Source: a virus. From it: DNA of 64,000 nucleotides. Position numbers and translations under genes: made by a program. Where the stretch lies: the UHGV virus genome UHGV-0149956, one strand, 5' to 3'. Below the pieces are notes generated by a model. That model saw nothing but the letters and a program-made list of their open reading frames with translations. It was not told the origin of the DNA and ran no database searches. The stretch's first letter is position 1. Each line of letters begins with the position of its first letter. Below, one piece after another: positions 21,829 to 41,949 of this stretch.

Positions 21829-22508
21829 CAATTGACTATCAGGTACTGCGCGAGGCGGCGGAACAGGCAACGCAAGATGAATGGGTAGCATATATTTTGC
21901 CGGGGCAAAACGGCACTTATCCTGCGCATACGTCTGAGGGTAGGCATTGCGGATACTTTATTGACTGGCCTGGCATTGATGGACAGAGAAACGCTGGTGC
22001 CAATGCCCGTTATATCGCGGCTATCCCACCCAAAGTTGTGCTGGCTCTACTGGATGAAATTAAGCGCCTGGAGGACACAAATATTGATGCTATGTGTCGA
22101 ATTGCAGAGCTTGAGACTAATCTCGCGGCGCTGGTGGCGGAGAATGTGGGGCTAAAGGCGATATGTGATGACCGTCGCAGGTTCATCATGAATGGGGTGC
22201 AGATGGGTTATATCAAGGTGCCAGCAGCGGAAACAGATCCAGACCTTGAGACAATTCGCATTGCTATATCACCACAAAAGCCCATTCCAGCCACTGATGC
22301 TTTCCTGTCTGAAGTGCGGGCGCAGGGGGTGGATGCTGCTATAGAAGCTGCAAAAAATCTGGTGGTCCAAGAATATGAGTATAAGGATTTCAAAGCGGCG
22401 CAGAGTGATTGCTGTATGCACCCTGGTTCAGACCTGGTAGGGAAGGTTGAAATGACTGAGTGGTTAGTTGACTTTGCTGCCCAGCTTCGCAAAGGAGGCA
22501 ACCAGTGA
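21825..22508 (+). CDS. hypothetical protein, paralogue family 1
   Basis: ATGA overlap; shares YQ.LREAAE and IVLALLDE segments with the next ORF. Confidence 0.45.
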   Translation: MTIDYQVLREAAEQATQDEWVAYILPGQNGTYPAHTSEGRHCGYFIDWPGIDGQRNAGANARYIAAIPPKVVLALLDEIKRLEDTNIDAMCRIAELETNLAALVAENVGLKAICDDRRRFIMNGVQMGYIKVPAAETDPDLETIRIAISPQKPIPATDAFLSEVRAQGVDAAIEAAKNLVVQEYEYKDFKAAQSDCCMHPGSDLVGKVEMTEWLVDFAAQLRKGGNQ

Positions 22509-23101
22509 GCGAAATTAATTACCAGGCACTGCGTGAGGCAGCACAGAACGCGAAAGATTTAGGTGAGATTAAGAATTACAAGCGAGGTGAGCAAGCTGTT
22601 GCCGAATTTGAGTCCTTAATAACGCCACGCATTGTGCTGGCGCTTCTGGATGAACGGGAAAGAAACCAGCAATACATCAAACGTCGCGACCAGGAGAACG
22701 AGGATATTGCGCTAACGGTAGGGAAACTGTTAATCGAAAACGGTCAGCTTGTTGCCGATACGCTACGCCACTTAGCTGATAACGAAATCGACTCTGATTA
22801 TTTTGCTATCACCTCAACGAATGAGAACGGTACTGAAATTGATCATGAGATGGCTATTACCGATTACGCACTGCAAGCTGCCGGAACTGTAGACGAATTG
22901 GTTGCAGCGCTGGAATCCGCAGAGAAGCGCATAGCAGAACTGTCTGCTAGCCACAGCAAATTGCGCGACACAATGGCTGGCATCCACAACACAATCCGAA
23001 TGGATGGCGGATATACGCCACTGACAGCAATCCTTAACGCTGCTAAACGCGCATATGAAGAATCAGCAAGCGCAGCTGGCATTCGCATCAAAGGAGAGTG
23101 A
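22505..23101 (+). CDS. hypothetical protein, paralogue family 1
   Basis: GTGA overlap; INYQALREAAQ and ITPRIVLALLDERER parallel the preceding gene. Confidence 0.45.
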   Translation: MSEINYQALREAAQNAKDLGEIKNYKRGEQAVAEFESLITPRIVLALLDERERNQQYIKRRDQENEDIALTVGKLLIENGQLVADTLRHLADNEIDSDYFAITSTNENGTEIDHEMAITDYALQAAGTVDELVAALESAEKRIAELSASHSKLRDTMAGIHNTIRMDGGYTPLTAILNAAKRAYEESASAAGIRIKGE

Positions 23102-23102
23102 T

Positions 23103-23618
23103 ATGGCGTTAACACACCGCGAACTCTGTCAGATTGCGTACAAGTTCCTTAAGCGCAACGGGTTCAAGGTTTGTTTTCATGACCGCTTTATAGCTGTAAC
23201 CAGTACCGGAGAACAGCCAGATGCTATGGGATTCAGAAATTCAGCATCATGCCTGATAGAGGCGAAATGTTCTCGTGCTGACTTGTTGGCAGATAGAAAA
23301 AAGCGTTTTCGTAAAAATCCGTCTCTTGGAATGGGAGACTGGCGATTCTTTATTAGTGAGCCGGGAATTATTTCAATTGAGGATTTACCACCTGGCTGGG
23401 GATTACTTCACGTTGTTAACGGAAGAGTACGGAAAGTACATGGGTGGCCCAAGGGTAATTGCTGTTGGGGTAATCCTGACGATAAGCCATTTACTGGAAA
23501 TAAGCAGGTTGAATGCGATTACATGTTATCTGCATTAAGGCGCATGGAGTTGAGAGGGCACCTTAATGAAATATATGACGGTGTAATTGTTAATAAGAAA
23601 GAAGGAAACGCGGCATGA
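23103..23618 (+). CDS. PD-(D/E)xK nuclease-like protein
   Basis: GEQPDAMGF...CLIEAKCSRAD fits a D...E-x-K restriction-endonuclease-like core. Confidence 0.4.
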   Translation: MALTHRELCQIAYKFLKRNGFKVCFHDRFIAVTSTGEQPDAMGFRNSASCLIEAKCSRADLLADRKKRFRKNPSLGMGDWRFFISEPGIISIEDLPPGWGLLHVVNGRVRKVHGWPKGNCCWGNPDDKPFTGNKQVECDYMLSALRRMELRGHLNEIYDGVIVNKKEGNAA

Positions 23619-24001
23619 TCACTATTACCAAAGAGCGACTGCTGACAATCAAGCAGTGGCGCGAAACATACGGACCGGGTAGCAACGTTGTACTGCCAGC
23701 AGAAGAAGCGGAAGAACTGGCACGAATTGCTCTGGCATCGCTGGAAGCAAAACCAATAGGTGCATTCCACATTGCAGAACAGCAAGTTGACGGCACAAGT
23801 GACTACATCAAGGATGGGGAGTGGCCTATTGATAATGGAATTATTGAGGTCTACGCCGCTCCCCCCGTTCCAGTAGTACCGGAAGAAAAACCAATGCCTA
23901 ATCCTCTTAGCATGTACGCGGTTGATGCTGTTGCCGCTATTGCAGAGGTAAGAGGCTGGAATGCCTGCCGCGCGGCTATGCTTCATGGGAAAGGAAAGTG
24001 A
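23615..24001 (+). CDS. hypothetical protein, paralogue family 2
   Basis: ARIALASLEAKPIGAF and VYAAPPVPVVPEE segments recur in the ORF at 24434. Confidence 0.45.
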   Translation: MITITKERLLTIKQWRETYGPGSNVVLPAEEAEELARIALASLEAKPIGAFHIAEQQVDGTSDYIKDGEWPIDNGIIEVYAAPPVPVVPEEKPMPNPLSMYAVDAVAAIAEVRGWNACRAAMLHGKGK

Positions 24002-24002
24002 T

Positions 24003-24224
24003 ATGGCTAACTCATTACTTGAAACCTGCAACAACTGGCAGATTCAGAGGGCGGAGATTTTATCTCGCAATCCAGATATGGCAATGACAATTGATAATCT
24101 GGACACGCTAATTGAACGGACCGTGCGTTCTGCAATTGATATAGCACATCGAGTGGATTGGGATTTCAGAGAAGCGGAGCGGCTTGCTAAAGAGCAGGAG
24201 AAAGCAGCGGGTAAAGGAGACTGA
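24003..24224 (+). CDS. hypothetical small protein
   Basis: ATG 24003 with GGAAAGGAAAG RBS; 73 aa. Confidence 0.35.
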   Translation: MANSLLETCNNWQIQRAEILSRNPDMAMTIDNLDTLIERTVRSAIDIAHRVDWDFREAERLAKEQEKAAGKGD

Positions 24225-24225
24225 T

Positions 24226-24423
24226 ATGGATAAAAACACCACTGCTTACTGGAATCTGTCACTTGATACCGAATGCCCAAAATGCGGTCACAATTTCGAT
24301 CTGCTTTGTGATCCAGATTTCTGGGAATTTTCTGGAGCAAAACAGGCATGTGAAGAAATAAAAGGTTACGAAACATGCTGTCCAGAATGTAACCATGAAT
24401 TTAAAACAGATTTTGTGTATTGA
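24226..24423 (+). CDS. zinc-ribbon small protein
   Basis: CPKCGHNF...CCPECNHEF double CxxC; AAGGAG RBS. Confidence 0.45.
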   Translation: MDKNTTAYWNLSLDTECPKCGHNFDLLCDPDFWEFSGAKQACEEIKGYETCCPECNHEFKTDFVY

Positions 24424-24433
24424 GGCATAACGA

Positions 24434-25705
24434 ATGACCACTTTTACTAAAGAACAATTAATAGAGATGATTAAGCGCAATATAACGATTATGGATCGTT
24501 ATCCTGATTTAGTAACTGCACAAATGGATCTGGAAGTATACAAAATTGCGCTGGCATCACTGGAAGCAGAACCAGTTGCTTATATTTTCAAACATCCGGC
24601 CGGGAAATTATTCTGGGCTTTAACGGATGAAAGCAATAAAGAGCAAGCGGACGTTATTCCTGTTTATGCTGCCGCGCCTGCGTCGGTTGTGCCGGATAAT
24701 GCATCAGAGCCTCTTGCTTATGCTTACAAAGAGCTTACGCCTGAGATTATGCGCAACCATTTAGCTGTATTCGAGCGATATGGAATAGCCCCAAACGATA
24801 GCTCTACCACAATTCAGGCACTGCGAATCGCGCTGGATGGTATAGAGCGGAGCGACGCCATGCTTCAGTCCGGAAACTTTCGGAAAAACAAGAATTCGTC
24901 AACCAATAATTTTCGGGAAATCGCGGAAACGTCAACCAACTATCCGGTAATTCCTAGTGAGGTGTTGTCCGCAATCCTGAAGGTTGCCAAGATTCGTGCC
25001 GATTTCGATGATTTTGACGGTGACAGGCGAGGTATCGATGATTGTCTGGATGAGGCTGAGCAAGAGCTTATCGTTACCATTAACAAATATGCCAGTCAGT
25101 TGGCAGCAGAACCGATAGCGACTAATGACGTTCGAGAGCAAACAGCCGTTCCGCCAGTTCCGGTAATACAGGCTGATGTCGCGCAGGCAATTGAAAAACT
25201 CAAACGGAAATTAGTGGAATGCAATCGCTATAACTACTGCGCAGATGCAGTTAAAGGCGTTGAGGATGCCTGCCGTGCTGTTAGCTATAGCCATGCCGAC
25301 AATCAACCAGCATCTGGCAACCAGGCAGCCGAATCCAATCGCGGTAATGAGTGGACCGGCAATCCTGATATTGATAACGCCATCATCATGCTCGATCGCA
25401 TAGATACGCTGGAAAGTTGCGATGATGACCGTATTGAGGCTGTTAAGGCTGTTTTGCGTAGACTAGCTGGCAACTCTCCGGTAACTCCGGATGGTTGGAT
25501 AAGCTGTAGTGAGCGAATGCCGGATACCAAAACAGCCGTTCTTGTTGCCGTGGAGTTTGACAGGAAAGGTGACTGGCGAATGAAATGGGCTACTTACATC
25601 CCGGGGCATCCTGACGCTAATGATGGGTGGATAATTCCTGGTGCGTCGTGGAAACCGTCACACTGGATGCCGCTACCAGAACCGCCGCAGGAGGTGAATC
25701 AATGA
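24434..25705 (+). CDS. hypothetical protein, paralogue family 2 (long form)
   Basis: 423 aa; N-terminal YKIALASLEAEPVAYIF and PVYAAAPASVVPD parallel the ORF at 23615. Confidence 0.5.
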   Translation: MTTFTKEQLIEMIKRNITIMDRYPDLVTAQMDLEVYKIALASLEAEPVAYIFKHPAGKLFWALTDESNKEQADVIPVYAAAPASVVPDNASEPLAYAYKELTPEIMRNHLAVFERYGIAPNDSSTTIQALRIALDGIERSDAMLQSGNFRKNKNSSTNNFREIAETSTNYPVIPSEVLSAILKVAKIRADFDDFDGDRRGIDDCLDEAEQELIVTINKYASQLAAEPIATNDVREQTAVPPVPVIQADVAQAIEKLKRKLVECNRYNYCADAVKGVEDACRAVSYSHADNQPASGNQAAESNRGNEWTGNPDIDNAIIMLDRIDTLESCDDDRIEAVKAVLRRLAGNSPVTPDGWISCSERMPDTKTAVLVAVEFDRKGDWRMKWATYIPGHPDANDGWIIPGASWKPSHWMPLPEPPQEVNQ

Positions 25706-25785
25706 GCTGGCCTGAAGCATTCACCACGGTAGGAATTGTGATGGCGGCAGCACTGGGTTTGTATTCAATTTGTCGCTGGTGGTAA
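25702..25785 (+). CDS. candidate small hydrophobic peptide (27 aa)
   Basis: MSWPEAFTTVGIVMAAALGLYSICRWW; ATGA overlap with upstream stop and AGGAGGTG RBS. Confidence 0.3.
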   Translation: MSWPEAFTTVGIVMAAALGLYSICRWW

Positions 25786-25787
25786 CG

Positions 25788-26021
25788 ATGGGAAAAATAA
25801 CTTTTGTAGTCGAATTTGAGGATGGTAAAGAGCCACCTGTTAGCGCCAATCTTGATGTTGCTGGTGGCAGGCTTGTTTCGGTTCTATTTGGTGACTACCG
25901 AGATGATTTCTTCCAACCAGAAGAAGTTGATGTGGTGCGAGAGGCATTAAACGAGTTAAGTGTTGATAACGATGATGCTCATGCGGAAATCATCCAAAAA
26001 ATGGAGCTGCTAACTCACTAA
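25788..26021 (+). CDS. hypothetical small protein
   Basis: 77-aa ORF. Confidence 0.3.
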   Translation: MGKITFVVEFEDGKEPPVSANLDVAGGRLVSVLFGDYRDDFFQPEEVDVVREALNELSVDNDDAHAEIIQKMELLTH

Positions 26022-26069
26022 ATTATCAATTATGGTGCTATCACCTACGACACCGAGAGAAAATTTATA

Positions 26070-26492
26070 ATGTCAAAAGTAAATGTTTTGATTTTTCAGC
26101 AATTGTTGGCTTTGGTTTTACTGCCGGAGTGCAGATTTATATTACGTGGGAAAAAATCATCAACTACGCATGGAGTTGTTTTATTAAGTGAGGTAAGTAT
26201 GTGGAGAGGTAATAGTCATGGCAAAAGCCAGATGATACTTACCGAATATCAGCTCGACCACAAAACCAATAAATCACGTTCAGTATATTTGCTTCGCCAC
26301 AATAGCCGCGTAAGGAATACCGTACTGGAGCAAAATCTGACCGTTGAAATGGATAATTACGGGGGCTTCAAGCCAACAATATCGCTTGATGATTTTCCTC
26401 GTGGTTTAAGCGAAAGAGAAGCAATGCTGAAATTAGCAGAATGGCTACAAAGATTAAGCATTGCTATTGAAGATAACTGGTCTGAACCTTAA
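26070..26492 (+). CDS. hypothetical protein in low-GC module
   Basis: 140-aa ORF in a visibly AT-rich stretch. Confidence 0.4.
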   Translation: MSKVNVLIFQQLLALVLLPECRFILRGKKSSTTHGVVLLSEVSMWRGNSHGKSQMILTEYQLDHKTNKSRSVYLLRHNSRVRNTVLEQNLTVEMDNYGGFKPTISLDDFPRGLSEREAMLKLAEWLQRLSIAIEDNWSEP

Positions 26493-26498
26493 ATTAAT

Positions 26499-26873
26499 AT
26501 GATGACACTAAAACATTTTCTTGACCGCCCATTATGGGCGGCAGCCGCAGGCTATGACTTTAATTATATGGATTGCATGTCTTATACTGCCAATGCATAC
26601 GACCATTCGTTCAGCCTGCTGTTTAATTCTTTAAGAATATTGCCGGAAACAGAAGTTGGAGAGCTTCATTTATGGATATTGGGCTTTATCGCGGCTGTCG
26701 TTGGTATTGCTGTATGGCCTTTTATTTTCTGGCTGGTGGCTGTTGTAGTGTGGTTTAAGTGCAAGACATACCGGAGAAAGTATTTCTTAGGTGATGGAAT
26801 GACTGATATTGCCAAAATGAACATTGAAAAATGGACTAAGGAATGTGAAAAGAAATGGCGCAAAAAGAAATGA
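26499..26873 (+). CDS. membrane protein in low-GC module
   Basis: 124 aa; long hydrophobic span LWILGFIAAVVGIAVWPFIFWLVAVVVWF then K/R-rich tail. Confidence 0.45.
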   Translation: MMTLKHFLDRPLWAAAAGYDFNYMDCMSYTANAYDHSFSLLFNSLRILPETEVGELHLWILGFIAAVVGIAVWPFIFWLVAVVVWFKCKTYRRKYFLGDGMTDIAKMNIEKWTKECEKKWRKKK

Positions 26874-27793
26874 CCAGAATCACTGAAGAGCGTATATCAG
26901 AGATTATTTCCCGTATCGAAATGTATGGTCACGGTGCTGGATATACGGCAGATGAAGTATTGGCACTTGCCCAAATGGCTTTGGCGGCTTGCAAAGATGA
27001 TAAAAAAATGAAGCTTATCGACTTGTTAGTGAAGGAGCTGCCTAAGTGCGGCGGGTGGCCTGATGGAATGAGTTATTGTTACCTACCCAGTGTCAATTTA
27101 ATGGCACCATGCGCGACTTTTGCTTTTGGCTCAGACCACAAAAAAGACACTTTCTTTGGGCGCAATTTTTGTTGTGAGATTGAGCTTCCAATTGGTGACC
27201 TTGATAGCGATGAATACCAGTCAGTTGTCACTCGCGAACAATACGAATCAGCTCTCATAGCGTCGCAGAAAGTCGAGTTCAATGGTGATGAACCTGAAAG
27301 TAAGACTTACAGGTTGGATTTTGGGCAATGGCTGGAACAGCAACGCGGAAAGATCGATGTGGACTGTGGTTGTGTGTCCACTGAAACATTCATGCACTGG
27401 CTGCGGGTAGCTTACGAGGCTGGCAACTATCCGGATATTCCGGATAGTTCGGTGTCAGCGCCAGGAAAGGGCGTCACCGGTGGACGTATCCGCATTAAGC
27501 CGCATGTTTATCGCGAACTGGTTAACCGTCTCCACGATACAGCGATCAAGTGTGCTGGCACCCAGCAATTACGAGAAAGAATTAGCCGTGTTTTGGGCGA
27601 CGTTATTACGCCAGATCATCATAAACAAGCCGAGAAAAGTGGCTTGGAAAGGTGTCACCTTGAGGCGGCATTAAACATTAAGCCGGGGCATACGCTTGGC
27701 ATTATTGATGCACTATTGGTTCATAAGATGGCCAGGGCTTTATTGCCGCTGGTGGCTGAAAAGCATGAGGCGGACCATGCCAACGAAAGCTGA
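26855..27793 (+). CDS. hypothetical protein
   Basis: 312-aa ORF overlapping upstream gene end. Confidence 0.45.
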   Translation: MAQKEMTRITEERISEIISRIEMYGHGAGYTADEVLALAQMALAACKDDKKMKLIDLLVKELPKCGGWPDGMSYCYLPSVNLMAPCATFAFGSDHKKDTFFGRNFCCEIELPIGDLDSDEYQSVVTREQYESALIASQKVEFNGDEPESKTYRLDFGQWLEQQRGKIDVDCGCVSTETFMHWLRVAYEAGNYPDIPDSSVSAPGKGVTGGRIRIKPHVYRELVNRLHDTAIKCAGTQQLRERISRVLGDVITPDHHKQAEKSGLERCHLEAALNIKPGHTLGIIDALLVHKMARALLPLVAEKHEADHANES

Positions 27794-28061
27794 GTTACAG
27801 GCGCGCATAGAGATTCTTGAAAAAGAGAATGCGAGTCTAAAAGGAATGCTGGCGCGGGCGGAAAGGGAATTATCAGGCAAATTATTGCCAGAAGAGCTGC
27901 CACCAGCAGATATACCTGATCGAGTGTCCTGGTGGATGAAGTATTTCCGTGCACCGTGGGAGGCGTTTTGGTGCTACGACCATCGCAGATGGTGTGATGA
28001 GCTTGATAGCAGTTTCCCCTATTTTGCGGAAGGGAACTCTTGCCCTGAATGTAGGAGTTAA
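27777..28061 (+). CDS. zinc-ribbon small protein, paralogue family 3
   Basis: C-terminus WMKYFRAPWEAFWCYDHRRWCDELDSSFPYFAEGNSCPECR parallels the next ORF. Confidence 0.45.
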   Translation: MPTKAELQARIEILEKENASLKGMLARAERELSGKLLPEELPPADIPDRVSWWMKYFRAPWEAFWCYDHRRWCDELDSSFPYFAEGNSCPECRS

Positions 28062-28366
28062 TGATGACCGGCGAGCTTTATTTTAAAATGGCACGGGAGC
28101 GGCGTGTGCATCTGGATCGGATATTTCATCTCCAGAAGAGAGTAGAAGAACTGGAACGTCGTCTGAACTGTTATCCTGTTGATATGGTGTCTGCAATACC
28201 GCCGATTCCAATAGAAATGCAGATCCGCCTATGGATGGAAGAATATGGAATGCCGTGGGAGATATTTTTCTGCTTCGACCATAAACAGTGGGTAGATGAG
28301 CTGGATAATAGTTTCCCATATTTCACAGAGAACACATGCCCAGTATGCAGGAAGAACGGAATATGA
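28061..28366 (+). CDS. zinc-ribbon small protein, paralogue family 3
   Basis: WMEEYGMPWEIFFCFDHKQWVDELDNSFPYFTENTCPVCR. Confidence 0.45.
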   Translation: MMTGELYFKMARERRVHLDRIFHLQKRVEELERRLNCYPVDMVSAIPPIPIEMQIRLWMEEYGMPWEIFFCFDHKQWVDELDNSFPYFTENTCPVCRKNGI

Positions 28367-28887
28367 CAAAATTTGGAAAGCTGGAAGCTCATTTGCTAAC
28401 TCGTAACTACCGCCATGATATACACCCATATAGACAGTGGATCGATGAAAGCGAAGGAGTAGTTACATTCCCTCTATACAGGTTTGATGGGATGTTGGCT
28501 GGGTATCAGACATATAGACCAGGTGCTCATAAGCAGCATAGCAATCCGAAGATGGCCCGGTATTTCACGCGATCACACGGCAGACAGTTACTTTGGGGAA
28601 CCTATCTTCCTTTAAAAGATGGCCCAATATGGATAACTGAGTCTATTTTTAAGAGCGCAGCTGTACACAACGCGGGCGGCAATTCGTGGGCGCTGTTAGG
28701 TTCGACTTTCTCCGCAGGATTACGCCGTCAACTTGCGATGCTGCCGTATGACTTTCGTGTAATAGGTGACAATGATGCGGCTGGTGAATTACTTGTGAAG
28801 TCTTTCGGAAAAGGTTTTGTGGCCCCGGATCTTGACGAGCTACAACCACATGAAGTGTCTCATTTGATTTTTAGCCATAGCCAATAA
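28363..28887 (+). CDS. Toprim-domain protein
   Basis: WITESIF (conserved Glu) and VIGDNDAAGE (DxD) form a Toprim signature; ATGA overlap with upstream stop. Confidence 0.45.
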   Translation: MTKFGKLEAHLLTRNYRHDIHPYRQWIDESEGVVTFPLYRFDGMLAGYQTYRPGAHKQHSNPKMARYFTRSHGRQLLWGTYLPLKDGPIWITESIFKSAAVHNAGGNSWALLGSTFSAGLRRQLAMLPYDFRVIGDNDAAGELLVKSFGKGFVAPDLDELQPHEVSHLIFSHSQ

Positions 28888-28903
28888 GCATCTCTCCCCT
28901 TTG

Positions 28904-28922
28904 AGGCCACAACTAGTGGCCT
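28904..28922. terminator. hairpin at convergent gene junction
   Basis: AGGCCAC-AACTA-GTGGCCT perfect 7-bp stem between the end of the plus-strand operon and minus-strand genes. Confidence 0.4.
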
Positions 28923-29009
28923 TAAACAATTTGTTTTCTACGTTTTCTTATTTGAGAAAATCACGTTGTTGGCAGCTCATAGGCTCGTTGTTATACATGG
29001 CTGTATAGA

Positions 29010-40168: not shown

Positions 40169-40810
40169 ATGGATAAGAAAATATGCGTTGTTTCGATGAG
40201 CGTCGGCAAACCGGCGTCAATGACTGCTGCATGGATCAACAACGAGCTGATAATGGCTGAGCGGACCAGCTACCCTGAACGCCGCCGCGACATGGAACTC
40301 CAGCTGCTGCGCGAATTGCGAGAAAAAGAGGAAAAGGGTTTTATCGTGCTGGTGGAAGAGGAAAACAGCTTTATTACTGGTCGAGTTGGCCAGCGTGTAA
40401 GGTTGCGCGATCCCTTCATGAACGGCAGGCCGGTACTGATTGAAGCAATGCAGATTTACAAGGAGCTGGAACGCCAGAAAGCGATCAAGTTACCGCGCAA
40501 GGAATCCGGCAAATACATCCTCCACCAAAGCATCTTCGATTCCGAACACGATAAAAAAGGCGATGAATTTTTCAACATCAACTGGAGCGAAATAACGACA
40601 GAGCATGTTCTGACGTTACTATGTTGCTTTGCGACGGAATACAACAACGTTGCCAGCGCCGACTACATCAGGGCAATGGCTGGAGAAGTTGAAGCCCGCC
40701 AGGAACCATCGTTACTAAGTCCACTTATTAACATAATTCTGGGTACCCAGACACTGGAACAAAAAAAAGTGCCGAAAGGGGTATTAACAGGCAAGCATAA
40801 TTATTTCTAA
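40169..40810 (+). CDS. mat: hypothetical protein downstream of ref
   Basis: Start set at ATG 40169 because a GC stem plus T-run lies inside the longer track ORF (40142); named by synteny. Confidence 0.45.
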   Translation: MDKKICVVSMSVGKPASMTAAWINNELIMAERTSYPERRRDMELQLLRELREKEEKGFIVLVEEENSFITGRVGQRVRLRDPFMNGRPVLIEAMQIYKELERQKAIKLPRKESGKYILHQSIFDSEHDKKGDEFFNINWSEITTEHVLTLLCCFATEYNNVASADYIRAMAGEVEARQEPSLLSPLINIILGTQTLEQKKVPKGVLTGKHNYF

Positions 40811-40977
40811 TAATTTATAGTGGGGACTTTTGATGGTGTAAAACCCCATGAATTATTATTTTTTAGTTTTTTGATTCTATTTTTTTTTGCATTACTCGTC
40901 ATAAAAATGAGCTTGCTTACATAATAGAAAATTATTTTATCAACACTATTACAACAAACGATTATCACTGATAACAT

Positions 40978-41001
40978 GAGTCCTTTGAAAACAAAGGACT
41001 C
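40978..41001 (+). promoter_or_regulatory. hairpin sequestering the ribosome-binding site of the GNAT gene
   Basis: GAGTCCTTTG-AAAAC-AAAGGACTC perfect 10-bp stem whose 3' arm contains AAGGA, ending 8 nt before ATG 41010. Confidence 0.45.
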
Positions 41002-41009
41002 ACCATACT

Positions 41010-41618
41010 ATGTCTAATACCTCGGCAAATGAAATTGTACCGCACTTACCGCTAATTTTCGAAAATGAAGCTAATGGGATTCTTCAGGATCTGGCCTATA
41101 CTCCATCGCTTATGGGGTTGATGATGTTCCCGACAGAAGAGGAGCTGAAAGCAGCGAGAAGCTACATAATTAACGTTTTTGAAGAGTGTTACCGAGCCGG
41201 TCATTTGCGCATTATGGGCTTTACTAATGAAGAAAACTTGTTCGGATACGCCTTAATCTTCGGACATCCATCGGGAAATTTTCCGTTGTACTGTCATAAA
41301 ATATATGTATATGAGCAATATCGTGGTAATGGACTTGGAAGTAATATACTGGCAGAAATACTTGCATTTCCAAATGAGGTCGCTTTGATTTGCCAGTCTG
41401 ATTTGGTTCCTTTTTATGAATCAGCCGGAATGCACTTTAAAGGAAATTACACCACTCCATCAGTCGCCAATTTCAAAAAAACTCGCGGCATGTATGAGGG
41501 GCTTTGTTTGATGAGCACTGAAAAAAATGCAAACTCTAATGGTGTACCTATATTCATGCTGAACGATAACGATATTGATAACATCATACAGGCTATCGCA
41601 TCATCGGCACCACGATAA
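41010..41618 (+). CDS. GNAT-family N-acetyltransferase
   Basis: Motif A YVYEQYRGNGLGSNILAEIL (R-x-x-G-x-G) and motif B NEVALICQSDLVPFYESAGMHF; low-GC gene preceded by a 200-bp AT-rich tract. Confidence 0.6.
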   Translation: MSNTSANEIVPHLPLIFENEANGILQDLAYTPSLMGLMMFPTEEELKAARSYIINVFEECYRAGHLRIMGFTNEENLFGYALIFGHPSGNFPLYCHKIYVYEQYRGNGLGSNILAEILAFPNEVALICQSDLVPFYESAGMHFKGNYTTPSVANFKKTRGMYEGLCLMSTEKNANSNGVPIFMLNDNDIDNIIQAIASSAPR

Positions 41619-41700
41619 TATTAATAATTCATCTCGCCGCAGGAACTACAAACCAGTTGATTGTTTGTGAAACGCCCGGTGCAAACCGGGCCAACAAAAC

Positions 41701-41949
41701 TCAATCAGCATTGAGAAGCAATGCATTATCTATGATGATCTGCTCCCATTCTTCGAATGCCCGGTCGCGGACGCCCTGGGGAACACTGTTTGTTTTGAAA
41801 TCGACGACTGTACGCCATTTCCCGTCCGGACGGTACATGCGCAGAGCTTTACTTCCCCCTTCCCTGCGCACCTCAACGTTATGCTTGTCAGCAAACTCTT
41901 GTAATGCTCGTAGCGTCCCATGCTTTACTGTGTAGTATCGCTTTTTCAA
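41701..41949 (-). CDS. lxc: small protein at the end of the ulx-darB transcription unit
   Basis: 82 aa, overlaps the upstream stop; named by synteny and size. Confidence 0.45.
   Translation of the reverse strand: MKKRYYTVKHGTLRALQEFADKHNVEVRREGGSKALRMYRPDGKWRTVVDFKTNSVPQGVRDRAFEEWEQIIIDNALLLNAD

Follow-up and report, generated by a model that had tools for sequence, protein, structure and literature searches.

The region between pmgT and humD is one of eight hypervariable regions described in P1-like phage-plasmids, and the variable regions of these elements are generally tied to low G+C content (PMC9603915). In JL22, pmgT is replaced by gene clusters of unknown function (PMC9603915). Here we analyse an AT-rich tract of small genes (26040–26880) in the virus genome UHGV-0149956, of which a stretch of 64,000 nucleotides is referred to as the window. 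The tract occupies the same place as the published pmgT variable region, i.e. it lies downstream of pap and Op88 and inside, or in replacement of, pmgT. It is an ordinary example of this already published kind of variable low-G+C region, with genes belonging to hypothetical-protein families. The three genes of the tract, their separate shuffling and the frameshift reported below are not described in that study (PMC9603915). The cargo of the window differs from that of JL22, which matches the window in the C-terminal part of pmgT only. In our reading, which we regard as the probable one, the tract is made up of three small accessory-gene cassettes, each exchangeable independently of the others, lodged where the C1-repressed pmgT operon of an SJ46-type element is hypervariable. 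The cassettes would encode a membrane peptide of 40 amino acids (aa), inactivated here, a cytoplasmic alpha/beta protein of 97 aa and an inner-membrane protein of 124 aa.

The tract resembles the early gene arrays of lambdoid, P22-like and N15-like phages (the PL ‘ea’, nin and Q-dependent regions), in which non-essential genes are likewise packed on one strand and swapped at their borders. These arrays hold homologues of both larger proteins, and the neighbouring genes in relatives are annotated as Ead/Ea22-like, Eaa, DUF551, DUF4014 and ASCH, all of them typical lambdoid early accessory genes. The mode of control differs: the lambdoid arrays are subject to antitermination by N or Q, whereas the tract lies under the C1 repressor in a P1 operon. 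Judging from these relationships, the best-supported source of the cassettes is a pool of small early genes common to temperate enterobacterial phages. The low G+C content would then be a mark of this common pool and not of recent transfer from a distant host.

Over the 2.2 kb surrounding the tract, identity to P1-like phage-plasmids of the SJ46 type from E. coli and Salmonella is 97–98% (16 phage and 454 plasmid records), and by this similarity the window can be assigned to that type. In classical P1, P7, D6 and JL22 the match is restricted to the final few hundred bases (pmgT C-terminus and pmgU), and the genes of the tract are missing. As a measure of their distribution, 679 PLSDB records holding the conserved pmgS/pap were counted as P1-like backbones. 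The 97-aa gene was present in 310 of these, the 124-aa gene in 257 and the segment with the small open reading frame (ORF) in 222; each of the two larger genes is thus carried by just 38–46% of the backbones. The whole tract finds matches in 310 records (union), which equals the count for the 97-aa gene. Because the two numbers coincide, the 124-aa gene seems always to be accompanied by the 97-aa gene in P1-like plasmids, the reverse not being the case. Where homology between relatives breaks off, it does so at the borders of genes (Table 1). In pAPEC201603, an ASCH gene is followed by the 97-aa gene and then by other genes, the 124-aa gene being absent, and in the L725 plasmid a 54-aa gene additionally separates 26480 from 26489, so that it lies between the 97-aa and 124-aa genes. 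Patchy presence in relatives that are otherwise about 97% identical and junctions on gene borders, the two marks of a mosaic of accessory cassettes, are both found here.

An original prediction made for this DNA had taken the tract to be a horizontally acquired module of two genes. The patchy presence, the junctions at gene borders and the homologues in other phages support the horizontal acquisition. The idea of a module is not supported, given that the 97-aa gene occurs alone in pAPEC201603, that a third gene separates the two in the L725 plasmid and that the families live apart elsewhere. A comparison of synteny across P1-like genomes, which had been proposed as a check, gave variable presence with junctions at the borders, the pair not being conserved in all relatives. 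In the loci examined outside P1-like elements, the 97-aa and 124-aa families were never found side by side, and at none of these loci, including those of the N15-like phages L009 and L022, did the other family occur within 5–6 kb. The membrane family is present in Yersinia phage P840 and Klebsiella phage phiKp_30, both of which are absent from the tblastn hits for the soluble family. The partners of a toxin-antitoxin or toxin-immunity pair should be neighbours wherever either of them occurs, and these two are not. Remote homologues (30–38% identity) of both families were observed in the same genome in the Proteus phages Isfahan, 2207-N35, RS10pmA and PM-CJR.

The gene content of the tract had to be revised as well. 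Two genes had been predicted, the first of them an ORF of 140 aa at 26070–26492. This ORF is not one gene but a chimera created by a one-base deletion in a run of T residues (26092–26096), which comprises five T in the window versus six in all eight relatives aligned over the 200 bp upstream of the 97-aa gene. The five-T allele was found in none of 222 plasmid hits and in none of 206 E. coli genome hits. With six T, a separate ORF of 40 aa opens (MSKVNVLIFSAIVGFGFTAGVQIYITWEKIINYAWSCFIK), which is uninterrupted (40–43 aa) in 8/8 relatives, one of them showing an in-frame indel of 9 nucleotides (nt). Because the six-T run of the relatives opens this separate ORF, the tract has three genes in its lineage, the first of which is broken here. 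The small ORF of the relatives matches phrog_5525 (E = 1.2e-24) and is annotated in the SJ46 record. In the window, the intact 40-aa ORF that characterises members of this family is not found, the frame being lost after codon 9. The 40-aa ORF terminates with a TGA that lies in the sequence serving the 97-aa gene as ribosome-binding site. Over the small-ORF segment, the ratio of nonsynonymous to synonymous polymorphism (pN/pS) is about 0.5 in its own frame and 1.45 in the frame of the 97-aa gene, and in three relatives a 5′ extension in the latter frame is interrupted by stop codons. We considered whether the 140-aa ORF might be a genuine protein with an extended N-terminus and rejected this because of these stops, the pN/pS of 1.45 and the six-T relatives.

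A second allele of this kind, P0018, is found in public assemblies (31 member sequences) and has lost one base in a run of A residues (26151–26156), leading to another fused product of 140 aa. The loss of one base in either run, as in the window or in P0018, joins the 40-aa ORF in frame to the 97-aa gene. Such deletions in homopolymer runs of the 40-aa ORF could reflect sequencing error, decay or slippage-prone variation; the five-T allele of the window is either a true mutation or a homopolymer sequencing error. Public gene calls of 129 aa were also considered as evidence for the frameshift and rejected, as they are longest-ORF calls starting from a TTG downstream of the T run, in a frame left open by most alleles.

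The 97-aa gene starts with an ATG at 26199, preceded by a GAGG ribosome-binding site at 26190–26193. Its product, residues 44–140 of the long ORF, matches phrog_1258 over profile positions 1–97 of 97 (E = 7.3e-49). Nearly all of its 128 homologues are 97 aa long and start with MWRG, and the Prokaryotic Genome Annotation Pipeline (PGAP) gives a length of 97 aa in every relative inspected. An alignment of 40 members reveals the invariant C-terminal residues DFPxGLSxRExMLKLADWLxRL...IEDNW, in keeping with membership of phrog_1258. The AlphaFold model (predicted local distance difference test score, pLDDT, of 80) shows an antiparallel sheet of four strands and, after it, a long C-terminal helix bearing the most conserved residues. 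Over its full length, the protein shares 55% identity with N15 gp44 and 67% with phiKO2 gp43, which belong to the same family. These two genes adjoin the gene of a Dam methyltransferase in a Q-dependent operon, whereas the 97-aa gene of the window does not. The family is common in Enterobacterales prophages. A Klebsiella prophage carries the homologue in a nin-like region, with replication genes on one side and terminase on the other; in P22-like prophages of Salmonella it comes last in the PL operon, preceded by N, Ral and recombination genes.

The 124-aa protein matches phrog_2638 over profile positions 1–120 of 120 (E = 5e-63), which places it in that family. The original prediction had noted a long hydrophobic span followed by a tail rich in lysine and arginine. 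This was borne out, with the span at residues 57–87 (nt 26667–26759; maximum Kyte-Doolittle value over 19 residues, 2.6) and net charges of +8 in the C-terminal tail and −4 in the N-terminal part. The succession of head, hydrophobic span and basic tail is kept in 29 members of the phrog_2638 family, in which F7, P11, A14, G18, Y19 and D25 are conserved. This family has few members (16 hits in a word index; 36 representatives in a set of 1.8 billion proteins). The structure model (pLDDT 76) is all-helical and consists of the head, a long helix through the span with a conserved proline in its middle, and a basic amphipathic C-terminal helix. The positive-inside rule suggests a cytoplasmic tail and an external head; alternatively, a re-entrant hairpin might keep both termini inside. 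Homologues are placed between exonuclease and Dam in N15-like phages and in the nin region of a P22-like phage. The slot directly upstream of the Dam methyltransferase gene is occupied by the 124-aa homologue in the N15-like phages L009, L022 and L020, and the slot directly downstream of it by the 97-aa homologue in phiKO2 (L023). Both families recur around Dam, though in different phages.

Selection was assessed for both larger genes, yielding a pN/pS of 0.20 for the 97-aa and of 0.25 for the 124-aa gene. These values indicate that both are under purifying selection.

The position inside a long early operon, as originally predicted, is supported by a C1 operator at the operon head, by the packing of the genes and by terminators at both ends. 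The pmgT operon extends from about 19.6 to 28.9 kb and comprises some 20 ORFs arranged head to tail on one strand. The operator shows one mismatch to the C1 consensus. A promoter-like site is present at 19615–19644, with a strong terminator just upstream (19084–19112). The 97-aa and 124-aa genes are separated by 6 nt. No promoter-like or terminator-like site was detected on the plus strand between 25.6 and 27.1 kb by a simple consensus scan, which weak or non-sigma-70 promoters would escape. There are no C1 operators inside the tract, the nearest upstream being that at 19643; no Rfam families were found within 25–28 kb, and the −22 motif of P1 late promoters does not occur in the operon. From this arrangement the genes of the tract are predicted to be repressed by C1 and silent in the lysogen. 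Given the operator, the close packing of the genes and the absence of detected internal signals, they would be transcribed only once C1 repression is lifted and would act early in the lytic cycle. Translation of each gene would be coupled to that of the preceding one.

Phage ‘morons’ are extra genes that have a promoter and a terminator of their own and often a deviant G+C content. The tract is like them in its variable presence, its deviant G+C content and its borders between genes. Morons nevertheless bring their own promoter and terminator, of which the above scan found none at the tract, and expression here is predicted to be early lytic and not from the prophage. In view of the missing promoter-like and terminator-like sites in the scanned interval, we rejected a classification of the tract as a classical moron.

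Table 1. Coordinates of the features of the tract and of the surrounding operon in the window.
Feature	Position	Strand	Evidence or remark
Operon head: homologue of the P1 Op88/OpmgT C1 operator (19643–19659) with PpmgT promoters	19591–19760	+	about 98% identity to P1
Block of small early genes, not in classical P1, exactly inside P1 pmgT	20533–27411 (6.9 kb)	+	blastn
Remnant of 40-aa hydrophobic small-protein gene (phrog_5525)	26070–26191	+	frameshifted: one T lost at 26092–26096
Mosaic junction, last base of GAGG, just upstream of the 97-aa start codon	26193		homology to RCS47, pAPEC201603 and pF1055-2 begins
97-aa soluble protein gene (phrog_1258; N15 gp44/phiKO2 gp43 family)	26199–26492	+	profile match, homologues
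Mosaic junction, end of the 97-aa gene	26480–26492		pAPEC201603-type homology stops at 26492, other genes beyond
124-aa membrane protein gene (phrog_2638)	26499–26873	+	head (residues 1–45), hydrophobic span, basic C-terminal helix
Mosaic junction, stop codon of the 124-aa gene	26874		RCS47 block ends at 26874, restarts at 27291
Terminator-like hairpin closing the operon	28900–28926	+	stem of 11 pairs, immediately following 28336–28887, the last plus-strand ORF

The AT-richness reported in the original prediction was confirmed by windowed and by per-gene analyses. The G+C content of 26040–26880 is 39.1%, compared with 48.5% for the whole window, i.e. about three standard deviations under the mean and at the 0.75th percentile among all windows of 841 nt; the sole stretch below it lies at 40.5–41.7 kb. 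Ranked from the bottom among 83 putative genes, the 97-aa gene is fifth and the 124-aa gene third in G+C content. At third codon positions (GC3), the values are 0.378 and 0.424, respectively, against a mean of 0.488. While the predicted interval itself is low in G+C, its limits were drawn too narrowly, the dip setting in within the upstream gene 25770–26021 (43.3%) and fading at about 27250.

Relative to P1, the tract is part of a larger block (Table 1). In blastn comparisons with the P1 locus (L001), positions 19000–20532 of the window correspond to 4469–6001 and positions 27412–27758 to 6001–6347, both flanks of the 6.9-kb block meeting at P1 locus coordinate 6001. P1 pmgT (L001, 5307–6236) was observed to equal the 5′ part of a 242-aa gene (19838–20566) joined to the 3′ part of a 312-aa gene (26855–27793), the two parts meeting at one point where they share no more than one or two bases. 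By this comparison P1 pmgT looks like a fusion left by a deletion of 6.9 kb; alternatively, the block may have been inserted precisely there.

Some other features of the window were recorded in passing. Downstream of the tract in the same operon, the adjacent genes 27696–28061 and 28061–28366 both match phrog_3797 (PmgU-like) and have the C-terminal motif SFPYF...CPxCR in common; they seem to be paralogues arranged in tandem. The operon closes with a gene (28336–28887, 183 aa) that matches DNA-primase PHROGs in their middle only (phrog_849, positions 143–333 of 435), and its product may be part of a primase or else a domain that stands alone. Upstream, 24184–24423 is a further low-G+C gene (39.6%), the 79-aa product of which has two CxxC pairs (CPKC...CPEC), suggesting a zinc ribbon. 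The stretch of lowest G+C content in the window (40478–41750, minimum 36.4%) contains a 202-aa ORF (41010–41618, 40.4% G+C) with the sequence ...YRGNGLGS..., which looks acetyltransferase-like by eye.

With the two proteins, the long ORF and the neighbouring genes as queries, Pfam, NCBIfam and PADLOC returned nothing significant, PADLOC-DB giving no hits for any of them at E ≤ 1. All PHROGs matches were to families of no assigned function, and profile searches of the Protein Data Bank (PDB) gave no credible match for either protein. Literature searches by protein accession found nothing on these proteins, and the paper describing SJ46 does not discuss the genes of the tract. The 124-aa protein gave a weak Pfam hit to CptA (PF07254; E = 0.072), with 13.7 bits compared with a gathering threshold of 27.3 and confined to the hydrophobic span. 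No hit to CptA at E ≤ 0.01 was obtained with any of the 29 scanned members of its family. The protein is similar to CptA/YgfX in its small size and hydrophobic membrane segment, in addition to the weak hidden Markov model hit. The CptA/YgfX partner CptB/SdhE, however, has no counterpart at the 124-aa gene. Based on the sub-threshold score and the unmatched family members, its identification as a CptA/YgfX toxin was rejected.

Three functions had been put forward for the gene pair, namely superinfection exclusion, abortive infection and toxin-immunity. Positive evidence for any of these did not emerge from the PADLOC searches, the CptA score or the promoter scan. Phage exclusion at the start of the lytic cycle is exemplified by T4 Imm and Sp. 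In a similar way, the 124-aa protein, perhaps together with the 40-aa peptide, might block the entry of phage DNA at the membrane, in the lysogen or in the early lytic phase. Such a role would suit a small membrane protein with one predicted hydrophobic span and a conserved, putatively non-cytoplasmic head domain, encoded in a hypervariable accessory region, differing in presence between close relatives and expressed early according to prediction. We nevertheless consider it unlikely, as there is no similarity to a known exclusion protein or PADLOC model, the gene is predicted to be silent in lysogens, and the family is also found in unrelated temperate phages, in early regions of the nin/Q type, with no signal specific to exclusion. 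Exclusion in the lysogen is unsupported, and exclusion during lytic growth is possible, without positive support. In a toxin-antidote or toxin-immunity pair, the 124-aa protein would damage the membrane and the adjacent 97-aa protein would neutralise it, thereby stabilising the plasmid prophage or aborting infection. The two genes are indeed adjacent, with the 6-nt gap mentioned above, and the apparent nesting of the 124-aa set in the 97-aa set, with the 97-aa gene also occurring alone, is the pattern expected of a toxin and its antidote; the weak CptA hit points to a membrane toxin. That hit, however, is far under its cut-off and restricted to the span, PADLOC recognised neither protein, the families are apart in P840, phiKp_30, L009 and L022, and the 54-aa gene intervenes in the L725 plasmid. 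Moreover, an addiction module has to be expressed in the lysogen, whereas here no own promoter was found in a C1-repressed operon, and the element already has phd-doc. We therefore judge such a pair to be very unlikely.

The tract could also be non-functional filler, that is AT-rich DNA with chance ORFs or decaying pseudogenes. The disrupted first ORF, the second frameshift allele P0018 and the lack of a protein of known function among the three fit this explanation, which is scarcely tenable in view of the pN/pS of 0.20–0.25 for both larger genes, their length being kept across genera down to about 25–50% identity, the confident structure models and the assignment of all three genes to PHROG families. 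For the two larger genes it is already contradicted. As a further alternative, the three genes could constitute one functional unit specific to P1-like elements. Slippage in the T6 and A6 runs might then shift the 97-aa protein phase-variably between a free form and one anchored in the membrane, and this protein might cooperate with the 124-aa protein or oppose it. We regard this as highly improbable; an error in sequencing, or the neutral decay of a small gene under weak selection, is a far likelier explanation than such a switch. Three observations weigh against the interpretation as independently exchangeable cassettes, which we prefer. The apparent nesting of the 124-aa within the 97-aa distribution could mean functional dependence instead of shared descent, the two families occur in the four Proteus phages about 6 kb apart on opposite strands, and the absence of a promoter depends on a scan of limited sensitivity.

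The genes of the tract would be dispensable for the P1 life cycle, since P1 does without them. As a working guess, each gene would act singly as a host-interaction factor. The 97-aa protein would bind a cytoplasmic component of the host or of its defence, and the 124-aa protein would act at the inner membrane via its conserved N-terminal head, with the basic tail in the cytoplasm.

P1-like phage-plasmids, which disseminate resistance genes, are frequently found in E. coli and Salmonella, and their cargo gathers in variable regions. Our analysis contains nothing surprising to the specialist, nor does it render an open question newly testable. It presents the C1-controlled pmgT operon as a landing pad for small early genes that are common to lambdoid and N15-like phages. 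Early accessory genes are a plausible source of host-takeover or anti-defence factors, which makes phrog_1258 and phrog_2638 reasonable candidates for functional screens.

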